Origin: an uncultured Gemmatimonadales bacterium
Lineage (GTDB): Bacteria > Gemmatimonadota > Gemmatimonadetes > Gemmatimonadales > Gemmatimonadaceae
NCBI GenBank assembly: GCA_963701965.1
Contig: OY969695.1
Coordinates: forward strand, 4,192,001-4,256,000
DNA: 64,000 bases
Direction: 5' to 3'
Shown here: positions 1-50,978 of the stretch, piece by piece
Numbering within the stretch: position 1 is the first letter of the stretch
Layout of the letters: the number at the start of each line of letters is the position of its first letter
Made by a program: the position numbers and the translations under genes
Notes under the pieces: model-generated
What the model saw: only the letters and a program-made list of their open reading frames with translations
Databases searched by the model: none
What the model was told of the DNA's origin: nothing

Positions 1-2338
1 CCAGGGTGGCCAACACCCACGTCGGCGCATCGGCGCGACTGACGCCGTAGAGCAGGCTGGCGAGGACGCGCGATACCAAAATGCCGCCCACTACGCCACC
101 CACGACACCGAATCCCACGAGGCGCATCCCCTGCTGCGCGACAATGCGCAGCGTCAGCGACGTCGGACTCCCCAGCGCCGCCCGGATCCCCAACTCGCGC
201 GTGCGCTGGGCTACGGCATAGCTCATCACGCCGTAGAGTCCCGCGACCGCGAGCACGAGCGCCACCAGCGCGAAGGTCCCGATGAGCGTGAGATAGAATC
301 GCGGCGTCCCCACGCTCGTCGCCATCACATCGGACATCGTCGAGACATCCGACACCGCGGCCACCGGATCCACCGAGTGGATGGCCGCGGTCACGGCCCG
401 CGTGACGGCGGCGGGGTCTCCCCGGGTCACGCGCAGCATGATCGGGTAGACGGTGTTGCTGGTGTCCATCTGAAAGTAGGAGTAGTACACCTCGGGGACC
501 GGCGGATCGATCGGCCCGGCGTTGGGGATGTCGCTGACCACACCGACGATGGTCGCGAACATGCTGTCACCCATGTAGAAGCGCTTCCCCACGGCATCCT
601 GATGCGGGAAATCGCGGCGGGCCAACGCCTCGTTGGCGACGACCGCGATCGGTACACCGGGACGATTGTCCTCGTCGGTGCGCGGGAGACGGCCCGCGAC
701 CAGCCGCTGGCCGGTAGCGCGAAAGAAGTCCGGCGTCGCCGTACGGTCGTCGACGAGCGGCTTGTGCTCCGGGTCGTCGTCGGGCTGTCCCTCGTATCGG
801 ATGTTGGAATTCGATCCCCAGTTGCGATACGGGACGTGGGAGATCGCGCCCACGTACTGCACGCCGGGCACGTGCGTGACTGCCGCGAGCATGGGCGTGA
901 GAAAGCGCCGGACGACCGCGCCGCTGGGATAGCGATCCGGCGAGACGGTCACCGTCAACGTCAGGAGCGGCCGCGGGTCGAATCCGGGATCCCGGCCTAC
1001 GAGCTTCTGGAATCCCCGCAGGACGAGACTGGCGCCGATGAGGAGCATCAACGACAACGCCACTTCGGCGATCACCAACCCCCCCAAGGCCCGATGATGG
1101 GCCGCCCCCGCGCCGCCGCCGCGGCCGCCGCGCAGGGCGTCCTGGGGGTCGACGCCGGCACTGTACCACGCCGGGAGCGCGCCGCAACACAAGGCCACGA
1201 GCGCGGCCAAGGAGAGCGCGAACACGACGATCCGCGCCTCGATGGCGAGACCGGTGAGCTGGGGCAGGCGGTCGCTGGCGAGCTTTCCGATCGTCATGAC
1301 GGTGAGCCACGCCAGACCGATTCCCAACACGCCGCCCGCGCCGGTGAGCACCGCGCTCTCGGCCAGCGCTGGCCGCATGACTGCCCACCGGCTGGCGCCC
1401 AACGCCGACCGCACCGCGATCTCGCGCTGACGGTGCACGCCGCGCGCCAGCAGCAGACTGCCCACGTTCGCCGAGGCGATCAACAGCACGGCGCACACGG
1501 CGCCGAACACGAGCAGGAGCGGCGTCCGCACGGTGGCCACGCTCTCGGCCTGGAGCGGCACGGCGCGGGCCGACTCGCCGCGCAGCTCGGGATGGATGGT
1601 GACCATGGCGTCGACCAGTGACCGCAACTCGGCGTTGGCGCTGGCCACCGTGGCGCCGGGCGCGAGGCGCCCCAACGCGTTCAGCCAATTGCTGCCGCGC
1701 CGGTCCCGTTCCTCCGGCGTGAACCGCATCGGGAGCCAGGCATCCCCGGTCAGCTCATAGTTGCCGGAAGGGATATGAAACCCCGGCGGCACGATGCCGA
1801 TCACCGTGGTTGGGACACCGTCGAGACGAACCACCCGGCCGACCACCCCGGGATCGGCGGCGAATCGTTTGCGCCACAACTCATCGCTGAGCACGACGAC
1901 GGGATTCTGTCCTTCGCTGTCGTCGGCGACGGTGACGAGGCGCCCATGCTCGGCGCGGGCGCCGAGCATGGCAAAGAGGTTGCCCGTCACCCGCCGCGTT
2001 TGGAGCTCGACGCCCTCCGTCGGCAGCGCCAGGAGTTTCGTGTCGTACCCAAAGGCCGCCAACCCGTCCAACTGGCGCACGCCGTGAGCCAGGTCGAGAT
2101 ATTTGGGCGCGGAGAACGGCCAGGTCTCGGACTGCGGGGCCGTCCTATAGACGGTGACCAAGCGGCCGGGCTCGCGGAACGGCAGCGGCCGCAAGAGCGC
2201 CTGATCAATGGCGCTGGCGATCGCCGTCGTCGCACCAAGCCCGAGGGTGAGACAGAGGATGGCGGACGCCGTCACAGTGGGGGCGCGGCGTAGCCGGCGC
2301 ACGGCATCCCGCAGGTCGTTGGACGAGAAGAGCGTCAC
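1..2338 (-). CDS. ABC transporter permease, ADOP/MacB-FtsX duplicated type; runs off left edge
   Basis: Not in the ORF track because there is no stop in the window. Manual translation from GTG 2338 gives MTLFSSNDLRDAVRRLRRAPTVTASAILCLTLGLGATTAIAS...LLRPLPFREPGRLV. The C-terminal part reads AVAGLYGVMSYAVAQRTRELGIRAALG, in the same frame at both ends. Confidence 0.9.
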   Translation of the reverse strand, partial: MTLFSSNDLRDAVRRLRRAPTVTASAILCLTLGLGATTAIASAIDQALLRPLPFREPGRLVTVYRTAPQSETWPFSAPKYLDLAHGVRQLDGLAAFGYDTKLLALPTEGVELQTRRVTGNLFAMLGARAEHGRLVTVADDSEGQNPVVVLSDELWRKRFAADPGVVGRVVRLDGVPTTVIGIVPPGFHIPSGNYELTGDAWLPMRFTPEERDRRGSNWLNALGRLAPGATVASANAELRSLVDAMVTIHPELRGESARAVPLQAESVATVRTPLLLVFGAVCAVLLIASANVGSLLLARGVHRQREIAVRSALGASRWAVMRPALAESAVLTGAGGVLGIGLAWLTVMTIGKLASDRLPQLTGLAIEARIVVFALSLAALVALCCGALPAWYSAGVDPQDALRGGRGGGAGAAHHRALGGLVIAEVALSLMLLIGASLVLRGFQKLVGRDPGFDPRPLLTLTVTVSPDRYPSGAVVRRFLTPMLAAVTHVPGVQYVGAISHVPYRNWGSNSNIRYEGQPDDDPEHKPLVDDRTATPDFFRATGQRLVAGRLPRTDEDNRPGVPIAVVANEALARRDFPHQDAVGKRFYMGDSMFATIVGVVSDIPNAGPIDPPVPEVYYSYFQMDTSNTVYPIMLRVTRGDPAAVTRAVTAAIHSVDPVAAVSDVSTMSDVMATSVGTPRFYLTLIGTFALVALVLAVAGLYGVMSYAVAQRTRELGIRAALGSPTSLTLRIVAQQGMRLVGFGVVGGVVGGILVSRVLASLLYGVSRADAPTWVLATL

Positions 2339-34037: not shown

Positions 34038-34616
34038 ATGGACTCCGAGTTCGAGTCACTTTTGCGGTGCGTCGATGGCGCGCAACCAGGTGCGGCGGAC
34101 AGGTTGTTCGCCATCTGCTACGCCGAGCTACACCGCCTCGCCGAGCACAATCTGTGGCGCTCCGGATCGACGGTCACCCTGGGGCCGACCACGCTGCTCC
34201 ACGAGGCGTACCTCAACATCGTCGGCCGCGCCGATGTCGCCTTTGCGGACCGACCCCGTTTTCTCAACTACGCCTCCCGGGCGATGCGTGGCCTGATCAT
34301 CGACTACGCCCGCCGCCGGCGCACGAGGAAGTGCGGACGGCAGTTCGAGATCACGCTGGCGACCGACGAGGAGCTCCCCGCTCATCCCGACCACGGCGCG
34401 GAGGATTTGGTCCGCCTCGGAGAAGCGCTCGACGAGTTGTCCACATTGGAGCCGGCGCTGGCGCAACTCGTCGACCTCCACTTCTTCTGTGGTTTCTCGT
34501 TCACCGAAATCGCCACCATGCGGCACGTCTCGGATCGCACCGTCCAGCGGGATTGGCGGAAGGCGCGACTACTGTTGCACCAGGCCTTGCTCGATGAGGA
34601 AAGCCCCGGGGGCTAG
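34038..34616 (+). CDS. ECF sigma factor of the kinase-associated TIGR02999 (ECF43-like) type
   Basis: YAELHRLA, TLGPTTLLHEAYL, RAMRGLIIDYAR, VDLHFF.G and RTVQRDWRKAR motifs. Confidence 0.92.
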   Translation: MDSEFESLLRCVDGAQPGAADRLFAICYAELHRLAEHNLWRSGSTVTLGPTTLLHEAYLNIVGRADVAFADRPRFLNYASRAMRGLIIDYARRRRTRKCGRQFEITLATDEELPAHPDHGAEDLVRLGEALDELSTLEPALAQLVDLHFFCGFSFTEIATMRHVSDRTVQRDWRKARLLLHQALLDEESPGG

Positions 34617-37216
34617 CGTGCCGTCGCGCCGAGGCGCGCCAGCCGCTCCTCGGCTTGCCGCAGGCGAGGGTGCGCCGCGCCGGCGCCAAACCGGAGCGCC
34701 GCGACGGCATGGGTCAGCGCGGCGCGCGCCGCGAGCGTGTCGCCGACGGCCAGTCGGGTGCGCGCCTCGAGCAGGTCGGCTTCGCCCGCGTATGCGCTGC
34801 GCGAGTCGGTCAGCGAATCCACGGACGCCACGGCTCGCGCGGCGCGTATGAAGCCGAGCGCGTCGGCCGTGTCCGACGGCGGCGTAGTTTCCGCGGCCAG
34901 GATGAGGGCCGAGCGAAAGACGCGCCGTTTCTTGCCATCGAAGTAGCCGTGCGATCTCAGCACGTCGACCACCCGCTCGTGTGCGGTGGCGCTGTCGCCG
35001 GACGCCAAAGCCATCCACGCGTCGAGAAAGCGATCGTCGACCACCTGATCGTCCGTGCTCCTGAGCGCGGGATTGCTGACCAACGGACGGAACCGGGTCA
35101 TCGTCCCGCGCGCCAGATCCCTGGCGCCACCACGGATCTGCGCCTGGGCGAGGCCGAACAGGGCCCGTCCTTGCCAGTATGCGTTGTGGGTCTGAGCCGC
35201 CTGACCCGCCAGGACCGCGAAGTACTTCGCCGCGGAATCGAAGTGCGCATTGAACAAAGCCGTGTGCGCATAATGAATGAGTGCCTGCTCCGGCAGGTGG
35301 CCGGCTGGATCGCTCCGTGTCGTCCGTTCGATCACGTCGTGCAAGAGGCGCTCGGCTTCCGCGGTCTCGCCCAGGCGAACGTACGTGACCGCCATGTCGT
35401 GCTCGATGATGCCGCGCGTCAGCGTTTCGCCACGGCCCGTCGAGTCCATCAGCGCGCCCGCCCGTCGATACAACGCGATCGCGTCGCGCGGGTGCCCATC
35501 GAGATCGAGTGACGTGGCCAAGGTCGACAGAAGCCCCACGAACGTCAGGTCCGTCGTGTCCGCCGACATCTGACGTATCGCGACCGCTCGCCGGGCGGCG
35601 TCGACGGCGCGGTGGGGATCGCCGGCCTCGGCTTCCAGGTCGGAGAGCGACTGCAGGCAGGTTGCTTCAACCGGCGCATCCGGCGCCGCGTGAAGGATCG
35701 CATCGGCCGCGCGCAGCGTCCGCCGCGCCTCGTCGTACCGCCCCACGCCCCGGAGGGCGGACGCCTGATGGCAACGGATCTCGGCCAGATCCGGATAGCC
35801 GCCGGCGACCGCGATCGACTCGGCGCGCGCGAGGAGCGTGTGTTGCGTCGTGTTGTCGCCCAGATCGCCGTACTGCGCGGACAGCTGGACGAGCAGGGCC
35901 GCGACCAGGCGCGAGTCGCCGACGTATTGACCTTCGAGCGCGACGCGGCTCCGATCGAGGATTTCGCGCATCGTGAGCGGCCGGTCGCCCAGCTCGGACA
36001 TGAGGAGCGACTGAAATTCGATGAGCGCGTTGGCGCGCCGGGTCGCGAATATCGCCGCATCGCGCTCGCGCTGTGCGGTATGCATCTGCGCCACCGAAAA
36101 CACCGTCGCCGCCAGGAGCGCGGCGCCGATGCCAGTCGCCAAGGCGACACCGGCGCGGTGGCGGCGAACAAACTTGCCCATCCGGTACGCGATCGAGTCG
36201 GGACGTGCGCCGACCGGTTCGTGGGCCAGATACCGGCGCAGGTCGTCGGCGAAAGCCTCCACCGTCTGATACCGTTCGCTCGGGTCCTGTCGCAGAGCCT
36301 TGAGGAGCACCGTGTCGAGATCGCCAAGGTCGAGCGATGGCGGTGCGGTGTCGCGTGGGGGAAGTCGGCCGGCGAGCAGCGCATGCAGCAGCAGGCCGAG
36401 CGCGTAGACATCCGTTGCCGTGGTAATGGCGTCGCCGTGCAGCTGCTCGGGCGCCGCGAATTGCGGCGTCAAGGGGCCGGATCCCTCGCGCGTGAGGGCC
36501 CCCATATCGCTCGCCGGGTCGGCGTCGATCAGCTTGGCGATGCCGAAGTCCAGCAGTTTCACGACGCCGTCAGGCGTGACCAGGATGTTCGACGGCTTGA
36601 GGTCGCGGTGGACGATGAGGTGCGCGTGCGCGTGTCCGACCGCGTCGAGGACCTGGAGCAGGAGGCCAATGCGGCCGTCCGACGACACCGCGTGAGTCGT
36701 GGCGAACGTGTCGATGCGTTCGCCGTCAATGTGCTCCAGGACGAGATACGGCTGCCCGCTCGGACTGACGCCGGCATCGAGGAGCCGCGCGATACCCGGG
36801 TGCGCCAGGCGGGCGAGCAGTGAGCCTTCGCGCCGGAACCGCGCTTGCCCGGCGGCACTGGACAGGGCCACGTTCAGGAGCTTGACGGCCGCGAATCCCT
36901 CGAATTGGCCGTCGGTGCGCCGCGCGAGCCAGACGGACCCCATCCCGCCTTGGCCGAGGAGTCGTTCGAGGGTGTAGGGTCCGAGTTGGACGCCGGCGAA
37001 TGATCCGTCCAGCGTCGGTGTGAACGGCTCGGCCAGAAACCCGCGTCGGTCGGCCGCCTCCTCACCGGACAGGAGCGACGTCAGCTCCTCCGCGACGGCC
37101 GGGGTGCGCTGGCGCAGGTCAGCGAGCCATGAGGCGCGCTCGTCGGGTGTCAGCTCCAGCGCGCGGTCCAGCAGCGGTTCGAGTACGCGCCACCGGTCGC
37201 GATCCATGATGGCCAT
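34613..37216 (-). CDS. Membrane Ser/Thr protein kinase with TPR-like C-terminus
   Basis: GQGGMGSV, AAVK, HRDLKPSN, DFG, FAAPEQ and DVYALG motifs; a TM helix then helical repeats; GGAG RBS before ATG 37216. Confidence 0.95.
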   Translation of the reverse strand: MAIMDRDRWRVLEPLLDRALELTPDERASWLADLRQRTPAVAEELTSLLSGEEAADRRGFLAEPFTPTLDGSFAGVQLGPYTLERLLGQGGMGSVWLARRTDGQFEGFAAVKLLNVALSSAAGQARFRREGSLLARLAHPGIARLLDAGVSPSGQPYLVLEHIDGERIDTFATTHAVSSDGRIGLLLQVLDAVGHAHAHLIVHRDLKPSNILVTPDGVVKLLDFGIAKLIDADPASDMGALTREGSGPLTPQFAAPEQLHGDAITTATDVYALGLLLHALLAGRLPPRDTAPPSLDLGDLDTVLLKALRQDPSERYQTVEAFADDLRRYLAHEPVGARPDSIAYRMGKFVRRHRAGVALATGIGAALLAATVFSVAQMHTAQRERDAAIFATRRANALIEFQSLLMSELGDRPLTMREILDRSRVALEGQYVGDSRLVAALLVQLSAQYGDLGDNTTQHTLLARAESIAVAGGYPDLAEIRCHQASALRGVGRYDEARRTLRAADAILHAAPDAPVEATCLQSLSDLEAEAGDPHRAVDAARRAVAIRQMSADTTDLTFVGLLSTLATSLDLDGHPRDAIALYRRAGALMDSTGRGETLTRGIIEHDMAVTYVRLGETAEAERLLHDVIERTTRSDPAGHLPEQALIHYAHTALFNAHFDSAAKYFAVLAGQAAQTHNAYWQGRALFGLAQAQIRGGARDLARGTMTRFRPLVSNPALRSTDDQVVDDRFLDAWMALASGDSATAHERVVDVLRSHGYFDGKKRRVFRSALILAAETTPPSDTADALGFIRAARAVASVDSLTDSRSAYAGEADLLEARTRLAVGDTLAARAALTHAVAALRFGAGAAHPRLRQAEERLARLGATAR

Positions 37217-37359
37217 GGACGGATCTCCCAAAGGACCGTACACGATACTCGGCCGGTCGGCGCGGTGCCAGCCGATCGGCCCACATAACGCGTGTCGGGT
37301 TTGCCCGCTGGATTTCGATCTCCTATGCGAGGGCCATTCCCGGCATAAGGAGCGCACGC

Positions 37360-38763
37360 GTGAGGACGATCTCGTTCGGCTCGGTCCGTCGACCCTGGAG
37401 TGCTTCCGCGGTCGTCGCAGTCCTGTGGGCGGTCGTTGGGGCCTGCACTGACGGCACGGCGCCGCCGTCCAGCGTCGCCCGTTCGAGCGATGTCGCTGGG
37501 GGGGCCGTCCACCGCTCGACGCTCGCGCAAACGGTGCGCGCGTTGGCCGCGGGACGTGGCGTGGTGCCGCTCCCTCCGGCGCCGCGGGTCCGACCCGCGT
37601 TGTCGGTTCTGGGGCAGGCGTTGGCGTTCGACAAGGTCTTGAGCGGCAACCGCAACATCGCCTGTATGACGTGTCATTTGCCGGCCTTCGAGACTGGTGA
37701 CGGGCGGAGCCTGCCCATTGGCACGGGAGGACGAAATCTCGGTCCGGCGCGTGTGCTCGCGAGCGGCTTGATCATTCCACGGAATGCGCCGCCTCTCTTC
37801 AACCTGCACGCGCTACCAGCGTTGTTCTGGGACGGCAGGGTCTCACGGGACGCCGCGGGGCAATACCACACGCCCGCGGGTGCTCAGCTCACCCCCGACA
37901 TGACCCGGGTGTTCGAGTTCGGCGCGGTATCGGCGCAAGGGCTCTTCCCGGTGGTGAATCGGCTCGAGATGCGCGGCATGAAGGGAAATGAGCTGGCGGC
38001 GATCCCGGACAGCAACAACCCCGCCATCTGGCGCGCGGCCATGCGGCGGCTCATGCAGAATCCCCGCTATCGCGAGATGTTCCGCGACGCCTATCCGGGG
38101 ACGCGCGTCGAGAGCATGAACTTCGCCTATGCGACCAATGCCATCGCGGGCTTCTTCATCGACAGGCTGACGATGAACCGCACGCCGTGGGATCGCTTCC
38201 TCGCCGGTGACGACAATGCGCTGTCGACCGATCAACTCCTGGGCGCGCAGAATTTCATGACGCTCAAGTGCTCCATTTGCCACAACGGCGCGACATTCAG
38301 CGACGGCCAGTTTCACGACGTGGCGCTCGCGCAATTCGGGCCGGGCGAGGGGGTAGCACCGAATCCGCTGGATGACTTCGGCCGGTTCAACGTCACGGGC
38401 GATCCGGGGGACAAGTACCGGTTCCGCACGACGCCGCTGCGGAATGTCGAGCTCACGGGGCCATATGGTCACGCGGGGCAGTTCAAGAAACTGAAGGACT
38501 TCATTGGGCACTACAGCCAGTCGGACGTTCAGCTCCGCAACTACGATCCAACGCAGATCGACCGGATCCTGTTCGGCACGCTCCTGAACAACACCAATGC
38601 GGTGCTGGCGCAACGCGATACGCTCCTCAACGGCGTCGTCATTCCGGACAGCACGGTGGCCCGTCTCACGACGTACATGAATGCTCTGACCGATGCGCGC
38701 GCGCGCGATCTCCGGTCGCTCGCCCCCGCGCGCGTCCCGAGCGGGCTGCCGGTGGATCGATGA
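37360..38763 (+). CDS. Diheme cytochrome c peroxidase / MauG superfamily lipoprotein
   Basis: VVGAC lipobox; LSGNRNIACMTCH, RNAPPLFN, FWDGR, CSICH and FRTTPLRNV motifs. Confidence 0.92.
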   Translation: MRTISFGSVRRPWSASAVVAVLWAVVGACTDGTAPPSSVARSSDVAGGAVHRSTLAQTVRALAAGRGVVPLPPAPRVRPALSVLGQALAFDKVLSGNRNIACMTCHLPAFETGDGRSLPIGTGGRNLGPARVLASGLIIPRNAPPLFNLHALPALFWDGRVSRDAAGQYHTPAGAQLTPDMTRVFEFGAVSAQGLFPVVNRLEMRGMKGNELAAIPDSNNPAIWRAAMRRLMQNPRYREMFRDAYPGTRVESMNFAYATNAIAGFFIDRLTMNRTPWDRFLAGDDNALSTDQLLGAQNFMTLKCSICHNGATFSDGQFHDVALAQFGPGEGVAPNPLDDFGRFNVTGDPGDKYRFRTTPLRNVELTGPYGHAGQFKKLKDFIGHYSQSDVQLRNYDPTQIDRILFGTLLNNTNAVLAQRDTLLNGVVIPDSTVARLTTYMNALTDARARDLRSLAPARVPSGLPVDR

Positions 38764-43443: not shown

Positions 43444-43857
43444 TCATTCGACGAACCGACGGACCTCGACATGCCCTCCGTACTTCCAATGCGGACACGT
43501 CGCCGCCACTCGATCGGCATCGGCGTCGCTCGGGGCCCGAACGATGAACATGCCCGTGATCTCGCCGGGCCCGATCAATCGTCCCCCCCGATCGACTCCC
43601 ACGCTATCGGCCCACCGTGCATACTCGTGGATCCGCTCCTCCATATGGCCCGGCGGTGGCAGGCGATACGTGGAGTCCTGGTGCAGGAGGAAGACGTAGG
43701 GACTGCCTTTCTGCGCCGACCAGTTGTGGACGAAGAGCAGCACGAGCGCGGCGGCGAGGGGGGCCAACAGCCACATCGCCGATCGTCGCCGAGGCCGGAT
43801 TTCGCCAGCTTGGATCAAGGCCCGCACCACGCGGTCCTCGAGAGGGACGTGTGTCAT
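43444..43857 (-). CDS. Putative anti-sigma factor: short N-terminus, TM helix, YCII-like C-terminal domain
   Basis: ATGA-coupled to the ECF sigma. TM helix WLLAPLAAALVLLFV; C-terminus GMFIVRA...A...A..CPH...GG.VEVR. Confidence 0.7.
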   Translation of the reverse strand: MTHVPLEDRVVRALIQAGEIRPRRRSAMWLLAPLAAALVLLFVHNWSAQKGSPYVFLLHQDSTYRLPPPGHMEERIHEYARWADSVGVDRGGRLIGPGEITGMFIVRAPSDADADRVAATCPHWKYGGHVEVRRFVE

Positions 43858-44363: not shown

Positions 44364-44959
44364 CGGGCGGGCGTGGGGTCGATCCAATCGCGAGCGACAA
44401 TGACGAGCGCCGAGCTCGGCGTCGCTGGATCGAGCACCATGGGGATGCTACCGTCGGACGATGGCACCAGTCCCATGTCCGCGGTGCGCATGCCCGGGTA
44501 GAAGACCATGACGTGCGGCAGCCACTTGCCGATCACGGTCCCATCGGGATTGGGCAACCGCTGGGCGGACGACAACATGAACACGAGCGCCGGGCGCGAA
44601 GGCGTCCGGAAGCGACCGGCGGCCCTCCCGTCCGCTATGGCGCGGGCGATGTCGGCATTCGAGCGGCCCGCCAGACGCTGCTCGACCCGAAAGCGCTCCA
44701 CGGCCAGGATGGTGGTATCGGCCTCGGCGTCACCGCACTCCGGTTCCAGTGACGTCTCCACGCTCCGAATGACCATGCACGCCTCGCCGGAATGACCGGG
44801 CTCGGCGACGACATAGTGGTTGTCGGCGAGCACATAGATCCGGGCGTCCTTCGCAACCGCCGGCGGCGCCGCGCTTCGGGCGAGCCGGATTTCGTCATTG
44901 CGCGACTGGGCCGCGGCGATGACGGGAACCAATAGGGCTACTGATAGAAGTATACGCAT
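44360..44959 (-). CDS. Secreted protein of unknown function (paralog of 45733-46444)
   Basis: Signal peptide; EIRLARSAAP, G.ACMV.RS, PEC, FMLSS and PHVMVF motifs. Confidence 0.8.
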   Translation of the reverse strand: MRILLSVALLVPVIAAAQSRNDEIRLARSAAPPAVAKDARIYVLADNHYVVAEPGHSGEACMVIRSVETSLEPECGDAEADTTILAVERFRVEQRLAGRSNADIARAIADGRAAGRFRTPSRPALVFMLSSAQRLPNPDGTVIGKWLPHVMVFYPGMRTADMGLVPSSDGSIPMVLDPATPSSALVIVARDWIDPTPAR

Positions 44960-44965
44960 ATCCAT

Positions 44966-44992
44966 GAGTGAAGGAAGCGGCACTTAAGGTTG
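44966..44992 (-). promoter_or_regulatory. ECF-type promoter CAACCTT-N14-TCACTC
   Basis: One of three identically spaced copies; ATG 44959 follows after 6 nt with no RBS. Confidence 0.75.
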
Positions 44993-45010
44993 TAGGGCCT
45001 ACGAGTCGTG

Positions 45011-45553
45011 TCACGGCAGCGATTCCCGAAGTAGGCGCCGGGCGCGGTTGAGTTGGCTTTTGGATGTCCCGACGACGATGCCGAGCATTTCGGCGATCTC
45101 CTCATGGGTGTATCCCTCGACGTCATGCAGGACGAAGACGTCGCGCGTTCCCTCGGGTAACCCGGCGATAGCGCGCTCGAGATCCGGCGCGTCGCCGGTG
45201 ACCCCGTGGAGCACGATCGGTTCGTCCGCGGGCCTCTCCACGGTCCGCCACGCCGTCCTCAGTCGCTCGCGCCGCACGCTGACCACAAAACGGGTGAGCC
45301 ACGAGTGCAGAGTCGATTCGGCGTGGAACGTGGAGAGCACGCGAACGGCGCTCAGCCAACTCTCCTGGACCAAGACCTCCGCCTCGCCCGCGTCGCCATC
45401 GGCCAGACGAAGCGCCAGCGCGTAGAGCGCTGGCGTGTGGATGCGATAGAGCGACCGAAAGGCGTCCTCTCCGCGGGAGCGTAAGAAGTGCTGGACGAGC
45501 GCGAGATCGTCGCTCCCACTGACGCGGGCCGGGTGCGGTTGTGGTGTAGGCAC
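45011..45553 (-). CDS. ECF sigma-70 factor (copy B, close paralog of copy A)
   Basis: Shares DDLALV.xFLRSRGEDAFRSLYRIHTPALYALALRLA and GYTHEEIA.MLGIVVGTSKSQLNRAR with copy A; likely GTG start at 45553. Confidence 0.92.
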   Translation of the reverse strand: MPTPQPHPARVSGSDDLALVQHFLRSRGEDAFRSLYRIHTPALYALALRLADGDAGEAEVLVQESWLSAVRVLSTFHAESTLHSWLTRFVVSVRRERLRTAWRTVERPADEPIVLHGVTGDAPDLERAIAGLPEGTRDVFVLHDVEGYTHEEIAEMLGIVVGTSKSQLNRARRLLRESLP

Positions 45554-45559
45554 ATACGT

Positions 45560-45586
45560 TAGTGAAGGAACCGGCCCAAAAGGTTG
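45560..45586 (-). promoter_or_regulatory. ECF-type promoter CAACCTT-N14-TCACTA
   Basis: Second copy; in-frame GTG 45553 follows after 6 nt. Confidence 0.75.
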
Positions 45587-45647
45587 GAAGGCCCGCCGGC
45601 GGAGGCGGTGCATGGCGGGGGACCGCCCCTGACGTCAACGACTCCTC

Positions 45648-45674
45648 CAACCTTTTGTCGGTCGCGCGTCACTC
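45648..45674 (+). promoter_or_regulatory. ECF-type promoter CAACCTT-N14-TCACTC
   Basis: Third copy, divergent, upstream of the secreted protein-SusC-SusD unit. Confidence 0.75.
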
Positions 45675-45732
45675 AGTGTGATAGACCCAGCACCAGAATG
45701 CTATCACGGATACTTCTCTGAGGAGACGGGTG

Positions 45733-46444
45733 ATGCCACGAAGGATCACAGGGTCGATCGTGTGGACACGCGTCGCCACGGTCGCGGCCCTGGGACTCGC
45801 GCAATCATCGCACGCCCAAAGCGCCGCGACCCCGTATCCCCGCATGGCGCCTATTGGGCAATACCTGATGGATCGCACGGCGGAGATTGCCCTGGCCAAG
45901 AGCGCCGCCCCCGCGTCGGTATCGGATAAAGCCCAAATCCTGGTGCTCGGACCGAAGGGCTACGAGACCGCGATCGAAGGGACCAACGGCTTCGTCTGCC
46001 TCGTCGAGCGATCGTGGCAGGCCGATTTCGACGACCCGGAGTTCTGGAATCCCAAGATTCGAGGCGCCGGGTGCTTCAACCCTGCCGCCGCACGCTCCGT
46101 CGTACCGGCGAAGGTGAAACGGCAGCAGATGATCCTGGCGGGACTGTCCAAGGCGCAGGTGATGGACAGTATCAAGGCCGCATTGGATCGGGGAACCCTG
46201 GTGGCACCCGCACCCGGCGCGATGTGCTACATGATGTCCAAAGTCGCGTACCTGAACGATCACGGCGACATGGCCCATTCTGATGTTCTTCCTCCCGCTC
46301 ACCGACGACAAAGTCTGGCCCGCGAGCGGGCCGACGCCGCCGTTCTTTGTCGATCAAAATCCGGTGGACCGCGTCACCACCCTCATCATCCCGACCGGCC
46401 ATTGGTCGGACGGCGCCCCGGCGTCGACTGGCGCGAAGGGATAA
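45733..46444 (+). CDS. Secreted protein of unknown function; apparent frameshift at ~46278
   Basis: GAGGAG RBS and signal peptide; EIALAKSAAP, GTNGFVCLVERSW and AMCYMMSK. Removing one T gives HLMFFLP...IPTGHWSDG...TAA 46444. Confidence 0.82.
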
Positions 46445-46488
46445 CCGGGATCCGCAGGACAGGCACCTTCAACCTTTCGGAGGCACAC

Positions 46489-49488
46489 GTGACGACAGTA
46501 TTTGTGCGAAGAGTGTGGCGAACGGCACTCACCATCGGTCTAGTAGCGCTGGGGAGCGCCGCGTCGACGGCAGCCCAGGCCCAGGGTACGCCGCGTCGTC
46601 TCACAGGGCATGTCATCGAGGCCGACGGGAAATCCCCCGTCCCGGCGGCGAGTGTCCGGGTCGGCAACAGTACCATCGGAAGTTTGACGACGGACAGTGG
46701 CACGTTCTCGCTCCGCGTGCCGGACGGCGCGCTGACGTTGACGGTCCGACGGATCGGCTATACGAGCAATACCGTGTCGGTCGCCGCCGATCAGAATGAT
46801 GTGACCATCTCGCTTACGCGCGACATCCTCAAGCTCGATGCCGAAGTGATCACCGGAGTGGCCACGACGATCTCGTCGAAGAACTCGGCGAATGACGTCG
46901 CGGTACTCAACGCGGATCAGATCAACCAGGTCCCCTCACCGACGATCGAGAACGCCCTGCAGGGCAAGATCGCGGGCGCCGTGATTCAGCAGAACAACGG
47001 TGGCGCCCCCGGTGGCGGCATGCAAGTCCAGATCCGCGGCGTCACGTCGATCAACTCCGATGCCTCGCCGCTGTACGTGGTCGACGGCGTGATCCTGAAC
47101 AACCAGACGATGAATAGTGGCGCGAACGCTGTGACCCAGTCAGCGAGCGTCATGCCCAAACAGTCGAGCCAGGACAACAGCGCGAACCGCATCGCCGATC
47201 TGAACCCGGACGACATCGAGACGATCGAGGTGTTGAAGGGGGCGTCGGCGGCCGCGATCTACGGGTCGAAGGCCGCATCGGGTGTCATCGTGATCACGAC
47301 GAAGAAGGGCCTCCCCGGCGCGCCGCAGTGGGATCTGTCGGGACAGGCCGGCACATACACGCCGTCGAACACGCTCCAGATGCGTACGTTCCCCACCTAT
47401 CAGAGCGCGAACGCGTGGTATATGAAGGACTTTCGCAGTCCGACGCCCTTGCCCTTGAGCATGTACGCCGGCAATCAAGACTATCAGAACCAGCTCTTCG
47501 GCGGCGGCCAGCTCTCGGGTCAGGGCGATCTGAGCGTCCGCGGCGCGAACAACAACACGAACTACTATGCGTCATTGCACGATCAGTACGACAATGGGAT
47601 CATGCTCGGTACTAGCTACAACAAGCAAGCGGCCCGGACGAACCTGACCGAGACGTTCTCTCCCGCGCTCACCGTCTCGACGAACCTGTACGTTCAGCAC
47701 TCGGTCACCACCCGCGGCATCACCGGCAATGACAACGTCGGGGTCAGCCCGTACAACATCTTTTCGGTGACGCCGCAATTCGTCAAACTGAATTCGTTCT
47801 CGCAGAATACGTGGGCTAATAATCCGTTCGGATTCGGCAATCCGTTTGCCGACGCCGCAGAGATTCAGACGCCGTCGGACGTCAATCGCTTCATTGGCGG
47901 CGGCACCGCGAACTTGCAGCTGTTCCACAGCGACCGGCAGGACCTGCGCCTGTCGCTGATCGCGGGGGTCGACCTGACCGGCGAGCACGACATCAACTAT
48001 GCGCCGCCCGATCTCGAGCTCGAGCAGCACCAGTCGCTGCCGGGCACGTCGAACCTGAGCAATGTGAATACCACGTACTACAACTACTCGATCAGCCTGA
48101 TCCATCACTTCACGGGGCTCTCGTTCCTCGACGCCACGACGTCGATCGGCGAATCGCAGGATCGGCGTACGGTCGACAACCCGAACCTCGTTGGACAAAG
48201 CCTTCCGCCCGGGATTGTCAGTCCGACCGCCGGACAGGTACAGACGACGTTCGAGAACAGAACCGATACGAAGACAATGACACTCTACGCGCAGGAACAG
48301 CTGCTCACGCTATCCCAGCGGCTATCCCTCACGGCCGGCGTGACGGCGGATCGCAACTCGAACAACGGCAACTTCTCGGCCTACTATCTGTATCCGAAGT
48401 TCGCCGCATCGTTCCGGATCCCGCAGTTCGTGGGCTTCATCAATGACGTCAAGCTCCGCTCGGCATACGGTCAGTCGGGCACGGCGCCGACATACGGATT
48501 CAACTACGCCAGCAACTCGAGTTGCGCGCCCGCCCTGAACACATCCCAGGCGCTGCTCTGCGGCTATACGGCGCCCAACGTCAATCTGAACGACCCGCAC
48601 ATCACGCCCGAAAAGAGCACCGAGACCGAGGCGGGAATCGACATCACCGCGTTCAAGTCGCGGGCGCAGTTCTCCGGTACGGTCTACAACAAGCAAATCT
48701 CTAACCTCGTGCTGTTCACGGCACCGGCGCAGGCGACCGGCTTGAGCCAGATCATCCTGAACGGTGGGCAATTCACCAATCAGGGCATCGAGCTCTCGCT
48801 CCAGATGTCCCCGATCGCCAACCCGCGAGGGCTCACCTGGATCTCGAACGCGACGTTCTACCGCAACTACAGCCGCGTGGACGCGCTCCCGTTTGGACCG
48901 TTCGTCGCGGGGTCCGGGTTCGGTGGGGGGTTTGGGGAGAACGAAGTTCGGGTCGGGCGTTCCGTAACGCAGATCGTCGATCCGGGTATCAAGAACGCGG
49001 ATAGCAGCGTGAAGCAGATCGGCGATGCGCAACCGTCCAATGTGATGAGCTTTTCGCAGCAGCTCTCGTTTGGTCGTCTGCATCTCTCCGGCGTGCTGGA
49101 TTGGTATGTCGGTGGGAGCGTCGCCAATTTGACCAACGCCTACTTCGATACGCGGCTCCTTCTGCTGGCCGATACGGCCGCGTCTCTGGCGCGCGCGAAT
49201 GCGCCGCCGACTCAGCACCCGTACATCGAATCCGCGCGGTTCGTCAAGCTCCGCGAGGTTCGGCTGAGCTATGATGTGCCCGATCGGTGGGTGCGTACGA
49301 TCGGAGCGGGACGGCTCCGCACCATGCGCATCGACCTGTCGGGTCGCAACCTCATATCCAGCTTCCCCTATTCCGGACTTGATCCGGAAGTGTCGAACTT
49401 CGGCAATAGCCAGATCTCACGCGGGCAAGACGTCACGCCGTATCCGCCTGCCAGAAGCTTCTTCTTCGGCGTCGACCTAGGGCTCTGA
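46489..49488 (+). CDS. SusC/RagA-family TonB-dependent outer membrane transporter
   Basis: GGAGG then GTG 46489; CarboxypepD-like N-domain; ALQGKIAG, PLYVVDGV and DLNPDDIETIEVLKGASAAAIYGSKAASGVIVITTKKG; C-terminus YPPARSFFFGVDLGL. Confidence 0.95.
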   Translation: MTTVFVRRVWRTALTIGLVALGSAASTAAQAQGTPRRLTGHVIEADGKSPVPAASVRVGNSTIGSLTTDSGTFSLRVPDGALTLTVRRIGYTSNTVSVAADQNDVTISLTRDILKLDAEVITGVATTISSKNSANDVAVLNADQINQVPSPTIENALQGKIAGAVIQQNNGGAPGGGMQVQIRGVTSINSDASPLYVVDGVILNNQTMNSGANAVTQSASVMPKQSSQDNSANRIADLNPDDIETIEVLKGASAAAIYGSKAASGVIVITTKKGLPGAPQWDLSGQAGTYTPSNTLQMRTFPTYQSANAWYMKDFRSPTPLPLSMYAGNQDYQNQLFGGGQLSGQGDLSVRGANNNTNYYASLHDQYDNGIMLGTSYNKQAARTNLTETFSPALTVSTNLYVQHSVTTRGITGNDNVGVSPYNIFSVTPQFVKLNSFSQNTWANNPFGFGNPFADAAEIQTPSDVNRFIGGGTANLQLFHSDRQDLRLSLIAGVDLTGEHDINYAPPDLELEQHQSLPGTSNLSNVNTTYYNYSISLIHHFTGLSFLDATTSIGESQDRRTVDNPNLVGQSLPPGIVSPTAGQVQTTFENRTDTKTMTLYAQEQLLTLSQRLSLTAGVTADRNSNNGNFSAYYLYPKFAASFRIPQFVGFINDVKLRSAYGQSGTAPTYGFNYASNSSCAPALNTSQALLCGYTAPNVNLNDPHITPEKSTETEAGIDITAFKSRAQFSGTVYNKQISNLVLFTAPAQATGLSQIILNGGQFTNQGIELSLQMSPIANPRGLTWISNATFYRNYSRVDALPFGPFVAGSGFGGGFGENEVRVGRSVTQIVDPGIKNADSSVKQIGDAQPSNVMSFSQQLSFGRLHLSGVLDWYVGGSVANLTNAYFDTRLLLLADTAASLARANAPPTQHPYIESARFVKLREVRLSYDVPDRWVRTIGAGRLRTMRIDLSGRNLISSFPYSGLDPEVSNFGNSQISRGQDVTPYPPARSFFFGVDLGL

Positions 49489-49490
49489 CC

Positions 49491-50978
49491 ATGACACTCT
49501 CTTCACACGCTCATCGCATCGCCACGCTCGGCATCATCGCGAGCCTGGCCGGTTTCGCCGGTGCGTGCAACACGAACCCGGTGGCGAATCTCAATCAGGT
49601 CGAGGCGGGCACATCGCCCTCCGGGTATCAAGCGCGCTTCCTCGGCATGCTGTACTTCCAGCGGCAAGACTTCGGGGATCGCGTCATCATGTTTAGCGCG
49701 TTCTCTCGGGACGGCGGTAATTTCACGACGACGGAAAAACGGTTCATCACCGAATGGCTCGGCGACGGAGCGGGCATCGAGGACGGCACGTTCTTCGGGG
49801 GCTCCAGCGAGGAATCCCAGCTGTCGTCGATCCGCCAGTCGGAGCAAATCCTTGCCGATCTGCCGAAAGCCGTGCCGGCGTATTCGGCAAGCGACATCGC
49901 CAAGTGGAAAGGGCTGATCTACACGATCGATGCCCTCGGGTATATGAACGTCGCGGTGCCCCACGACACGGTCGGATTCCCTATGGCGTCGGCAACAACG
50001 ACGACGCCGTCGATTCAGACGCCGATCCTGTGCACAAAGAACGTCTGGCAGCAGATCGTCGCGCTACTGGACTCGGGGTTCACGCAACTCAACGCCGATC
50101 AGAGTCCGGGACTACCGATCACGCTGCCGCCGGGATTCTCACTGGTCAGTGCCCAGGCGAGCCCGAGCACGAAGATCGGTTCGTTCGCGGCGCTCAATCG
50201 CGCCCTGGCCGCGCGCGCCAACCTCGAGCTGGCCTACGCGATCGCGCGGTCGCCAGGTGGAACGCCGCCGACCCCGACATCGCCCGGGGCTCCGGATCAT
50301 GCGGCACTGATCCGCGCCGACAGCGCGCTGCACGCGTCGGCGCTGTACTCGGCAACGAATCTGGCGCCGCCTGCCGCCGGTGCATTCAACAATGCGCTCG
50401 CGGTCTACCAGGATTTCTCGGGCCAGTCCGGCGATCTCCCGAATTTGTTCCTGCAACAATACCAAACGACGTTCTACATCCTCAACGAGGCGATGGCCGA
50501 CATCGATCCGGCCGATAAACGGTTAGTGAAAATCATACCCGCCGCCGGGCCGGCTGGTACCCCGTTCTCCTCGGTGGCCTCGGCGAACACGATTGGGATG
50601 TATCCCTCGGCGGACAGTCATATGCCGATCATCCGTAACGAGGAGCTCAACCTCTTCGAGGCGCAGATTCGACTCGGACTGGGTGATATCCCCGGTGCGA
50701 TCAATGCGATCAATGCGGTGCGGGTGCAGGTCGGCGGATTGCCGGCCCTGTCGGCGGCCGGACAGACCTACGTGTCCGTGCGCAATCAGATTCTCAAAGA
50801 GCTCCGGGCGTCGACGATCGGCGAGACGAATGGCGATCGGGTCGCCGCCATCCGGGACTACGGCTTGCCCGCCCTCGCGGACACGACGTGGGGCAAGGTC
50901 GACACCCACGCCACGGTCATGACGCTCGCTGCCAATGATGTGGAGGGGCGCGCGAGTTCGAATTACACCTGTCACTAA
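49491..50978 (+). CDS. SusD/RagB-family nutrient-binding lipoprotein
   Basis: FAGAC lipobox; PIIRNEELNLFEAQ, AINAINAVR and ILKELR...GDR motifs; directly follows SusC. Confidence 0.88.
   Translation: MTLSSHAHRIATLGIIASLAGFAGACNTNPVANLNQVEAGTSPSGYQARFLGMLYFQRQDFGDRVIMFSAFSRDGGNFTTTEKRFITEWLGDGAGIEDGTFFGGSSEESQLSSIRQSEQILADLPKAVPAYSASDIAKWKGLIYTIDALGYMNVAVPHDTVGFPMASATTTTPSIQTPILCTKNVWQQIVALLDSGFTQLNADQSPGLPITLPPGFSLVSAQASPSTKIGSFAALNRALAARANLELAYAIARSPGGTPPTPTSPGAPDHAALIRADSALHASALYSATNLAPPAAGAFNNALAVYQDFSGQSGDLPNLFLQQYQTTFYILNEAMADIDPADKRLVKIIPAAGPAGTPFSSVASANTIGMYPSADSHMPIIRNEELNLFEAQIRLGLGDIPGAINAINAVRVQVGGLPALSAAGQTYVSVRNQILKELRASTIGETNGDRVAAIRDYGLPALADTTWGKVDTHATVMTLAANDVEGRASSNYTCH

Follow-up and report, generated by a model that had tools for sequence, protein, structure and literature searches.

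Three copies of a likely target promoter of an ECF sigma factor clade at a Gemmatimonadota locus

Results

Three bipartite sites in a 64,000-nucleotide stretch of DNA from an uncultured Gemmatimonadales bacterium (contig OY969695.1, positions 4,192,001 to 4,256,000; hereafter the window) are likely to be conserved, autoregulatory copies of the target promoter of a clade of ECF sigma factors of the Gemmatimonadota. The best explanation, with a probability of roughly 0.85, is that this conserved clade promoter is read here by the sigma factor sig2 and by its paralogue at C1:726.7 kb. The minus strand of the locus carries, in order, sig1, hypA, sig2 and a gene for a small membrane protein, and the plus strand carries hypB and a susC/susD-like pair; the named relatives are Gemmatimonadota. 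The features are listed below by position in the window.

43444..43857, minus strand: predicted anti-sigma factor, ATGA-coupled to sig2, 137 aa
43854..44363, minus strand: sig2, intact ECF sigma factor with sigma-2 and sigma-4, 169 aa
44360..44959, minus strand: hypA, 199 aa, its stop overlapping the sig2 start (GTGA)
44959, minus strand: predicted +1 of P1, identical to the A of the hypA ATG
44965..44994, minus strand: P1, predicted ECF promoter (-35 at 44994-44988, -10 at 44971-44965)
45011..45553, minus strand: sig1, ECF sigma factor, 81% identical duplicate of sig2
45559..45588, minus strand: P2, predicted ECF promoter whose +1 would be 45553, the G of the sig1 GTG
45646..45675, plus strand: P3, predicted ECF promoter pointing away from P2, whose +1 would be 45681
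45733..46444, plus strand: hypB, distant hypA paralogue (29%), with a frame change near 46275
46489..50978, plus strand: susC/susD-like pair following hypB and preceded by a separate SD; susC over the cut-off, susD by position only

Three sites with a fixed spacer

The preliminary description of this DNA had reported three CAACCTT-N14-TCACT sites, and all were verified in the sequence, coordinates and spacers included. They are the only exact matches in the 5,116,566-base genome, all lie in the window less than 700 bases apart, and a genome scan with spacers of 11–13 and 15–18 instead of 14 gave no match. Word counts predict about 0.035 exact matches genome-wide, an expectation that is circular on its own, as the pattern was drawn from the same three sites, and the independent test is that of other genomes. 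With up to two mismatches the window contained four matches against 1.30 expected, a number reached by 4 of 100 shuffles. The conserved element is longer than the one first described, having T(C/G)CAACC at the front and a final A after CACTN. Matrix scores were 33.0 for P3, which is followed by a 52-nt leader with GAGGAG ahead of hypB, 25.6 for P2 and 14.2 for P1, the lowest of the three. The P1 level is matched by 30 genome sites, and the assignment of P1 leans on its position and on orthologues. A fourth CAACCTTT, ahead of susC, was rejected as a promoter for want of a matching -10.

The motif accompanies a sigma factor clade across genomes

Sigma factor loci were gathered from 41 relatives and 251 genomes of the phylum; 103 fetched loci and five own regions gave 95 rows after identical duplicates had been merged. 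A Gibbs (de novo) motif search was run on 30 upstream regions from related loci, none of them from the window's genome, and 20 of 25 starts converged on T(C/G)CAACCnTT...GnCACTnA, with an information content of 24.3 against 11.9–12.5 in four shuffles. In summary form the motif is T(C/G)CAACC-16 bp-NCACT(C/A)A. A matrix score of at least 15 was obtained upstream of 29 of the 34 core sigma factor genes (30 being training rows), 17 of 27 held-out sister genes, 0 of 34 outgroup genes and 0 of 95 in-gene controls, counts that come from related genomes, are not independent and are to be read as consistency and not as significance. Absence of the motif upstream of orthologous sigma factor genes had been named in advance as grounds for refutation; the motif was found there across genomes, the held-out sisters included. 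The outgroup genes retain the CAACC -35 but with an ordinary C(A/G)TC -10. Core and sister sigma factors form one clade of 61 rows (support 98/95); a careful tree breaks the 34/27 split of the quick tree by moving L054 and L055 into a 36-row clade, and the counts keep the original labels. Among the affected rows, L004 and L062 are cut off by the end of their contig, L004 being mis-sliced as well, L044 and L048 are probably misplaced and L030 is frameshifted; the outgroup row L017 comes from an unpublished genome (G012), and no claim depends on it alone. Three reverse-strand matches proved to be promoters of divergent partners, one at this locus and two in G157, which has the same back-to-back pair. 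The motif has the make-up of an ECF target promoter: it is bipartite, its spacer measures 16 bp, and orthologous sigma operons have it conserved ahead of them.

It is scarcely credible that P1–P3 are functionless remnants left behind by local duplication. The DNA of sig1 and sig2 is 82% identical and P1 and P2 have part of the spacer in common, as relics might, but across the sampled families it is the boxes and not the spacer that are conserved, which contradicts such a reading.

In the window's genome all five sites scoring at least 18 fall at the two loci of the sigma clade. Column-shuffled matrices gave 2–7 genome sites at this threshold and none at 22 or more, and only the top four sites (at least 22) clearly exceed chance. 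At 15 or more the real matrix gave 24 sites and the shuffled ones 18–36; a genome-wide regulon was rejected, since the real matrix yields no more sites than shuffled matrices once the score drops under about 20. When hyp genes were found independently of sigma factor genes, the motif preceded 7 of 9 beside a clade sigma factor gene (two of them those of this window) and 0 of 23 elsewhere. The genome-wide scan that had been proposed for defining the regulon therefore delivered two loci and no genome-wide set, and the predicted regulon is local.

Register of the promoter and probable leaderless starts

Passages of Todor 2020 (PMC7776599) give the general ECF consensus as TGTAACC-16..18-CGTCTAA and put the TSS either at -1 or at +1 relative to the base of the -10 that is flipped out. 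Promoters of the related Arg76 sigma factors have C(A/G)TC-N-N-A in the same columns as the clade -10, and by these shared columns the clade element reads N at -13, C at -12, A at -11, C at -10, T at -9 and A at -7, behind a 16-bp spacer. This register places 44959, 45553 and 45681 on the '-1' option of those passages. The predicted +1 column holds A in 14 and G in 4 of the 21 core promoters without a start codon there (18/21 purine; background A, 17%), and pyrimidine-purine steps peak at it (13/21; 9 and 10 in the two upstream columns). In-frame starts lie 0–7 nt from this column in 27 of 55 clade promoters (55 of the 61 clade rows were kept for the count), 11 of them exactly on it, compared with 1/55 and 4/55 in control windows.

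ATG 44959 and GTG 45553 are indeed, as reported earlier, in frame and 6 nt past TCACTN, without an SD-like word. The further claim that the promoters correct the starts of the open reading frame track is supported as well, 44959 fitting the N-termini of homologues and the ATG column of orthologues. The track's starts, GTG 44983, ATG 44965 (in frame, directly adjoining the P1 -10) and ATG 45613, were rejected; each falls within or ahead of a promoter and lacks an SD. GTG 45553 shares bases with an out-of-frame ATG at 45555, and a leader peptide of sig1 beginning at this ATG was likewise rejected, as it would start 2 nt before the predicted +1 and run for 67 codons. Four hypA orthologues, all from one genus, have an ATG in the same column as 44959; leaders are longer in 16 of the 21 hypA genes of the core set. 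A length of 199 aa is the commonest among hypA homologues (17/48), many of the closest of which begin MR. From these starts, the hypA and sig1 mRNAs are likely to be leaderless and that of hypB leadered. Of 2,252 ORFs in a crude set, 105 have a TANNNT ending 6 nt ahead of the first ATG, against 2–24 at offsets 0–4 and 10–19 and an SD peak of 113; leaderless genes thus look common in this genome, which would make the leaderless starts here ordinary.

An improbable alternative is that the promoters are real but transcription starts 1–3 nt further downstream, which would leave ATG 44959 and GTG 45553 outside the mRNA and make the leaderless call wrong. Glu84 activity (Asn84 data, Dataset S3 of PMC7776599, in a comparison without mean rows for CA, AA, AC and AG) is 0.33 for CG versus 0.02–0.04 for CC, GC and TC, which would favour C at -13 and a one-base shift, and starts in the sister clade are scattered over columns 35–40. 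This argument is limited by position 84 being Glu in only 59 of 118 close homologues. Against a shifted register, columns 36 and 37 show no preference for A (7/21 and 3/21), five hypA genes and one YCII gene (in G003) have their ATG exactly on the +1 column, and the outgroup promoters pin the register through the common -10 C and -7 A.

sig2 and its duplicate sig1

Both sigma factors belong to the ECF family (group 4), matching Pfam regions r2 and r4 and TIGR02937 over the cut-off, with no r3 match. sig2 retains the clade residues. sig1 carries the changes D48V, R56S, R71H, C75T, G76R, N80S and A125T, each found in 0 of the 118 closest homologues (the numbering matches E. coli RpoE); near-invariant sigma-2 residues are among those altered. 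It has accumulated 20 derived amino-acid changes against 6 in sig2 (synonymous changes, 20 versus 13), with an overall dN/dS of 0.19 for the pair, and no anti-sigma gene lies behind it. In relatives the start of the sigma factor gene is coupled either to the end of hypA (an in-frame GTGA at 17/26 junctions) or to an upstream ORF of 10–17 codons; at sig1 the GTGA site reads GGGA, so that no in-frame start other than GTG 45553 is left close to the promoter. sig1 is therefore likely to be a decaying duplicate, and the cognate sigma factors of P1–P3 are most likely sig2 and the paralogue at C1:726.7 kb. The preliminary description had called the motif the target promoter of the local sigma factors; this holds in that the motif tracks the clade across genomes, with another -10 in the outgroup, and needs amending in that sig1 looks degenerate.

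We consider it unlikely that sig1 has changed its job, either by acquiring a new -10 specificity or as a decoy that binds the anti-sigma factor and amplifies the response. Its frame is open, its dN/dS against sig2 resembles that of other pairs, it still stands behind a strong promoter, 13 of the 20 derived changes fall in residues 40–95 with only 3 in sigma-4, and G76R is the outgroup state that accompanies -11 T. However, the complete absence of the seven changes from the closest homologues and the loss of the anti-sigma gene argue for decay, and the nearest relative of sig1 is sig2 itself (81%; next 72%), the altered form not being seen conserved.

At loci where the sigma factor gene comes first (G000 C1:726617-726705; L040, L065, L026, L025; L007, L008, L009, L011), an out-of-frame ORF of 10–17 codons is often present in place of hypA, with a GTGA overlap with the sigma start; in one family these ORFs have 12 codons and are Arg-rich. 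Such short upstream ORFs are possibly a translational control of the ECF sigma factor.

Predicted anti-sigma factor and neighbouring genes

The gene immediately behind sig2 (+1) has the features of an anti-sigma gene: it is coupled to sig2 and its product has one membrane helix, assigned from hydrophobicity and from the model. The polypeptide consists of a short N-terminal helix, the hydrophobic helix and a YCII-like C-terminal domain. Pfam YCII was matched in 26 of 26 predicted anti-sigma factors at E values up to 0.1, the window's own match being under the Pfam cut-off (15.3 versus 24 bits); a profile search matched PDB 1s7i (E 6.8e-9), with ClcF, TftG and YciI-like folds just below significance. 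Its 171 homologues are mostly unnamed or hypothetical, and most sister-clade sigma factors are paired with a different outer domain. A complex prediction for sig2 and this protein scored 0.59 against 0.00 for the best of three controls, and is rated weak: of 157 solved pairs 116 reach the mark, as do 2 of 215 mismatched ones, but scores from the mark up to 0.60 include only 18 of the solved pairs and both of the mismatched. Runs agreed in at least 93% of contacts, with a partner pLDDT of at least 69. At 137 aa the protein lacks about 15 N-terminal residues relative to close orthologues (150–160 aa), which may weaken sigma binding.

The N-terminus of hypA, read from the sequence, is signal-peptide-like. 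The protein had no match in Pfam, NCBIfam or the PDB sequences, and no named neighbour in the Atlas; a Foldseek search gave no match at E 0.001, and the best VIA Z was 2.9, results that do not establish a new fold. Its model is confident (pLDDT 89.7), and Cys75 and His149 are invariant. The 1252-aa ORF at 45733-49488 is likely to be hypB and susC joined where the reading frame shifts near 46275, whether through an assembly error or a real break; the hypB stop would be TAA 46442-46444 and the susC start GTG 46489. Read-through from P3 into the susC/susD-like pair is possible.

Recognition of the -10 element

Sites were placed by the -35, the -10 C and the -7 A only. For sigma factors with Gly, Ala or Ser at 76 and Arg83, -11 was A in 36 of 36 uniquely placed sites (48 rows), and for those with Arg76 it was T in 23 of 23 (32 rows). 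An independent metagenome set gave -11 A in 4/5 (9 rows) and -11 T in 29/29 (50 rows) for the same two classes, and GT stood at all nine placed sites from the 14 remaining metagenome rows. CA was also read in five of nine other genome rows, and neither residue rule is therefore strict. The published code, in passages of PMC7776599, ties -11 A to an acidic residue 56; this residue is Arg in 118 of 118 close homologues. A sigma factor of a pPATH hrp cluster (HrpL by gene order and an adjacent hrp box) has Glu56, Gly76, Asn80 and Arg83. These alignments offer the lead that a CAC -10 tracks Gly76 and Arg83 rather than an acidic residue 56, two distant lineages representing two events. If correct, the Gly76 and Arg83 reading would be a missing rule in the ECF recognition code, and residues 76 and 83 versus -12/-11 would be a cheap test of it. 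Upstream motifs of related ECF sigma factors (L105–L184) sort by subfamily, with TATC, CATC, CGTC and TGTC variants of the -10, and would serve directly for studying how sigma factors and promoters covary.

It is very improbable that the motif is read by a factor other than the adjacent sigma factor, such as sigma-70, an unrelated ECF sigma factor or a repressor. The CAACC -35 is common to the outgroup ECF sigma factors, so that cross-talk could occur, but the -10 switches together with the sigma clade and its region 2.4 residues, the motif is missing at hyp genes away from sigma factor genes, and it is bipartite with a fixed spacing. In addition, a search of 43–47 kb for a sigma-70 consensus site found none.

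Comparison with known systems

Systems of this kind are well known, and what the present one adds is modest, namely the anti-sigma architecture and the recognition rule. With the autoregulated ECF/anti-sigma modules described in passages of PMC7776599 it shares the AACC core of the -35, the 16-bp spacer, -10 C, -9 T and -7 A, a purine at the predicted +1, a small local regulon and probably leaderless targets, whereas -12 and -11 are C and A in place of the consensus G and T. ECF32 (HrpL) has the same CAC-N-N-A -10, and the clade has a -10 of its CCAC type. However, the GGAAC -35, the +1/+2 kinase and regulator and the T3SS context of that group are absent here; the clade is 29% identical to the pPATH HrpL, with Arg56 instead of Glu56, and HrpL is under two-component and sigma-54 control with T3SS targets, in place of an anti-sigma factor. 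According to passages of PMC7826278 (Text S2), ECF39, ECF21, ECF37, ECF51 and ECF128 have CAACC-containing -35 elements like the clade, ECF39 and ECF21 being described with an anti-sigma factor at +1, but their -10 elements are CGTC, CGTCT, CGTT, GCGTGTC or GGCGTC, in contrast to CACT. A CGTC-type -10, shared by ECF39 and the other CAACC groups, does not fit, with A at -11 in 36 of 36 uniquely placed sites of sigma factors that have Gly, Ala or Ser at 76 and Arg83.

In ECF42 and ECF38s4 (YCII gene at -1, in passages of PMC7826278) a YCII-family protein also adjoins the ECF sigma factor, whereas in the present module the +1 gene encodes the YCII domain in one polypeptide with a preceding hydrophobic helix; the sigma factors (169–180 aa) lack the C-terminal TPR extension of about 200 aa of ECF42. 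The pair CnrH-CnrY (ECF291, class II anti-sigma) has the same short cytoplasmic anti-sigma part followed by one membrane helix; the CnrY profile matched with a non-significant E of 0.45, the sensor is fused here and separate there (CnrX), and no metal-efflux genes were seen among the scanned neighbours. The parts of the Casas-Pastor 2021 text covered (PMC7826278) contain CACT 0, YCII 3 and Gemmatimonad 5 times; the YCII mentions include passages on ECF38 and ECF42, and Gemmatimonadetes appear in ECF19, 25, 41, 56 and 248. None of these passages describes a module like the present one, and the group is apparently undescribed. A literature search on Gemmatimonadota ECF promoters, leaderless mRNAs and YCII anti-sigma factors, which extended to passages of PMC10783764, PMC7406223 and PMC9678800, found nothing on the module, although it may be present in published tables or in Datasets S1 and S2 of Todor 2020, and found no TSS study for Gemmatimonadota.

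A wider reading, which we put forward tentatively and would rather doubt than accept, is that this is an unclassified Gemmatimonadota ECF group with a new type of anti-sigma factor, sensing through a periplasmic YCII fold, that its HrpL-like CAC arose independently, that Gly76 with Arg83, and not an acidic residue 56, is a general -11 T to A switch, and that sig1 is possibly a young decoy.

Proposed mechanism

From the observed motif, fixed spacing, co-occurrence with the clade and gene order we infer the following for the conserved clade promoter. sig2 would be held by the co-translated membrane protein encoded behind it and released upon a signal at the outer YCII-like domain. Free sig2 would then fire P1, giving hypA-sig2-anti-sigma mRNA in a positive feedback, P2, giving sig1 and reading on into the operon, and P3, giving hypB. 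Transcription would begin 5 nt past the last A of the -10, and translation of sig2 would depend on its coupling to the end of hypA. The inducing stress is a guess from topology, envelope or small-molecule. The locus offers a ready promoter, regulon and predicted anti-sigma factor for a widespread soil phylum, and possibly an orthogonal sigma-promoter pair for synthetic circuits. It also brings together in one circuit two families so far uncharacterised, one of membrane proteins with a YCII domain and one of predicted secreted proteins that had no fold match.

Second locus and minor observations

A second locus of the same kind, with a sigma factor, a membrane protein and a hyp gene, lies at C1:726.7 kb. 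The motif stands ahead of its sigma factor gene and hyp gene and, in weaker form, ahead of a YCII gene and of a TPR-extended sigma factor gene that we take to be ECF42-like. The motif precedes a YCII gene at G000 C1:724971 and at L025:967, and in G000, where the YCII gene has an internal stop, the gene for the presumed ECF42-like sigma factor comes next, an order suggesting a sigma cascade. Upstream of a sigma-free hyp paralogue (G000, upstream of C1:4473557) is a palindrome, TGCAACCGGTTGCA, which may be a repressor operator. Elsewhere in the window (34613-38763), a gene for a Ser/Thr kinase with TPRs is divergent from one for a MauG-type di-haem peroxidase.
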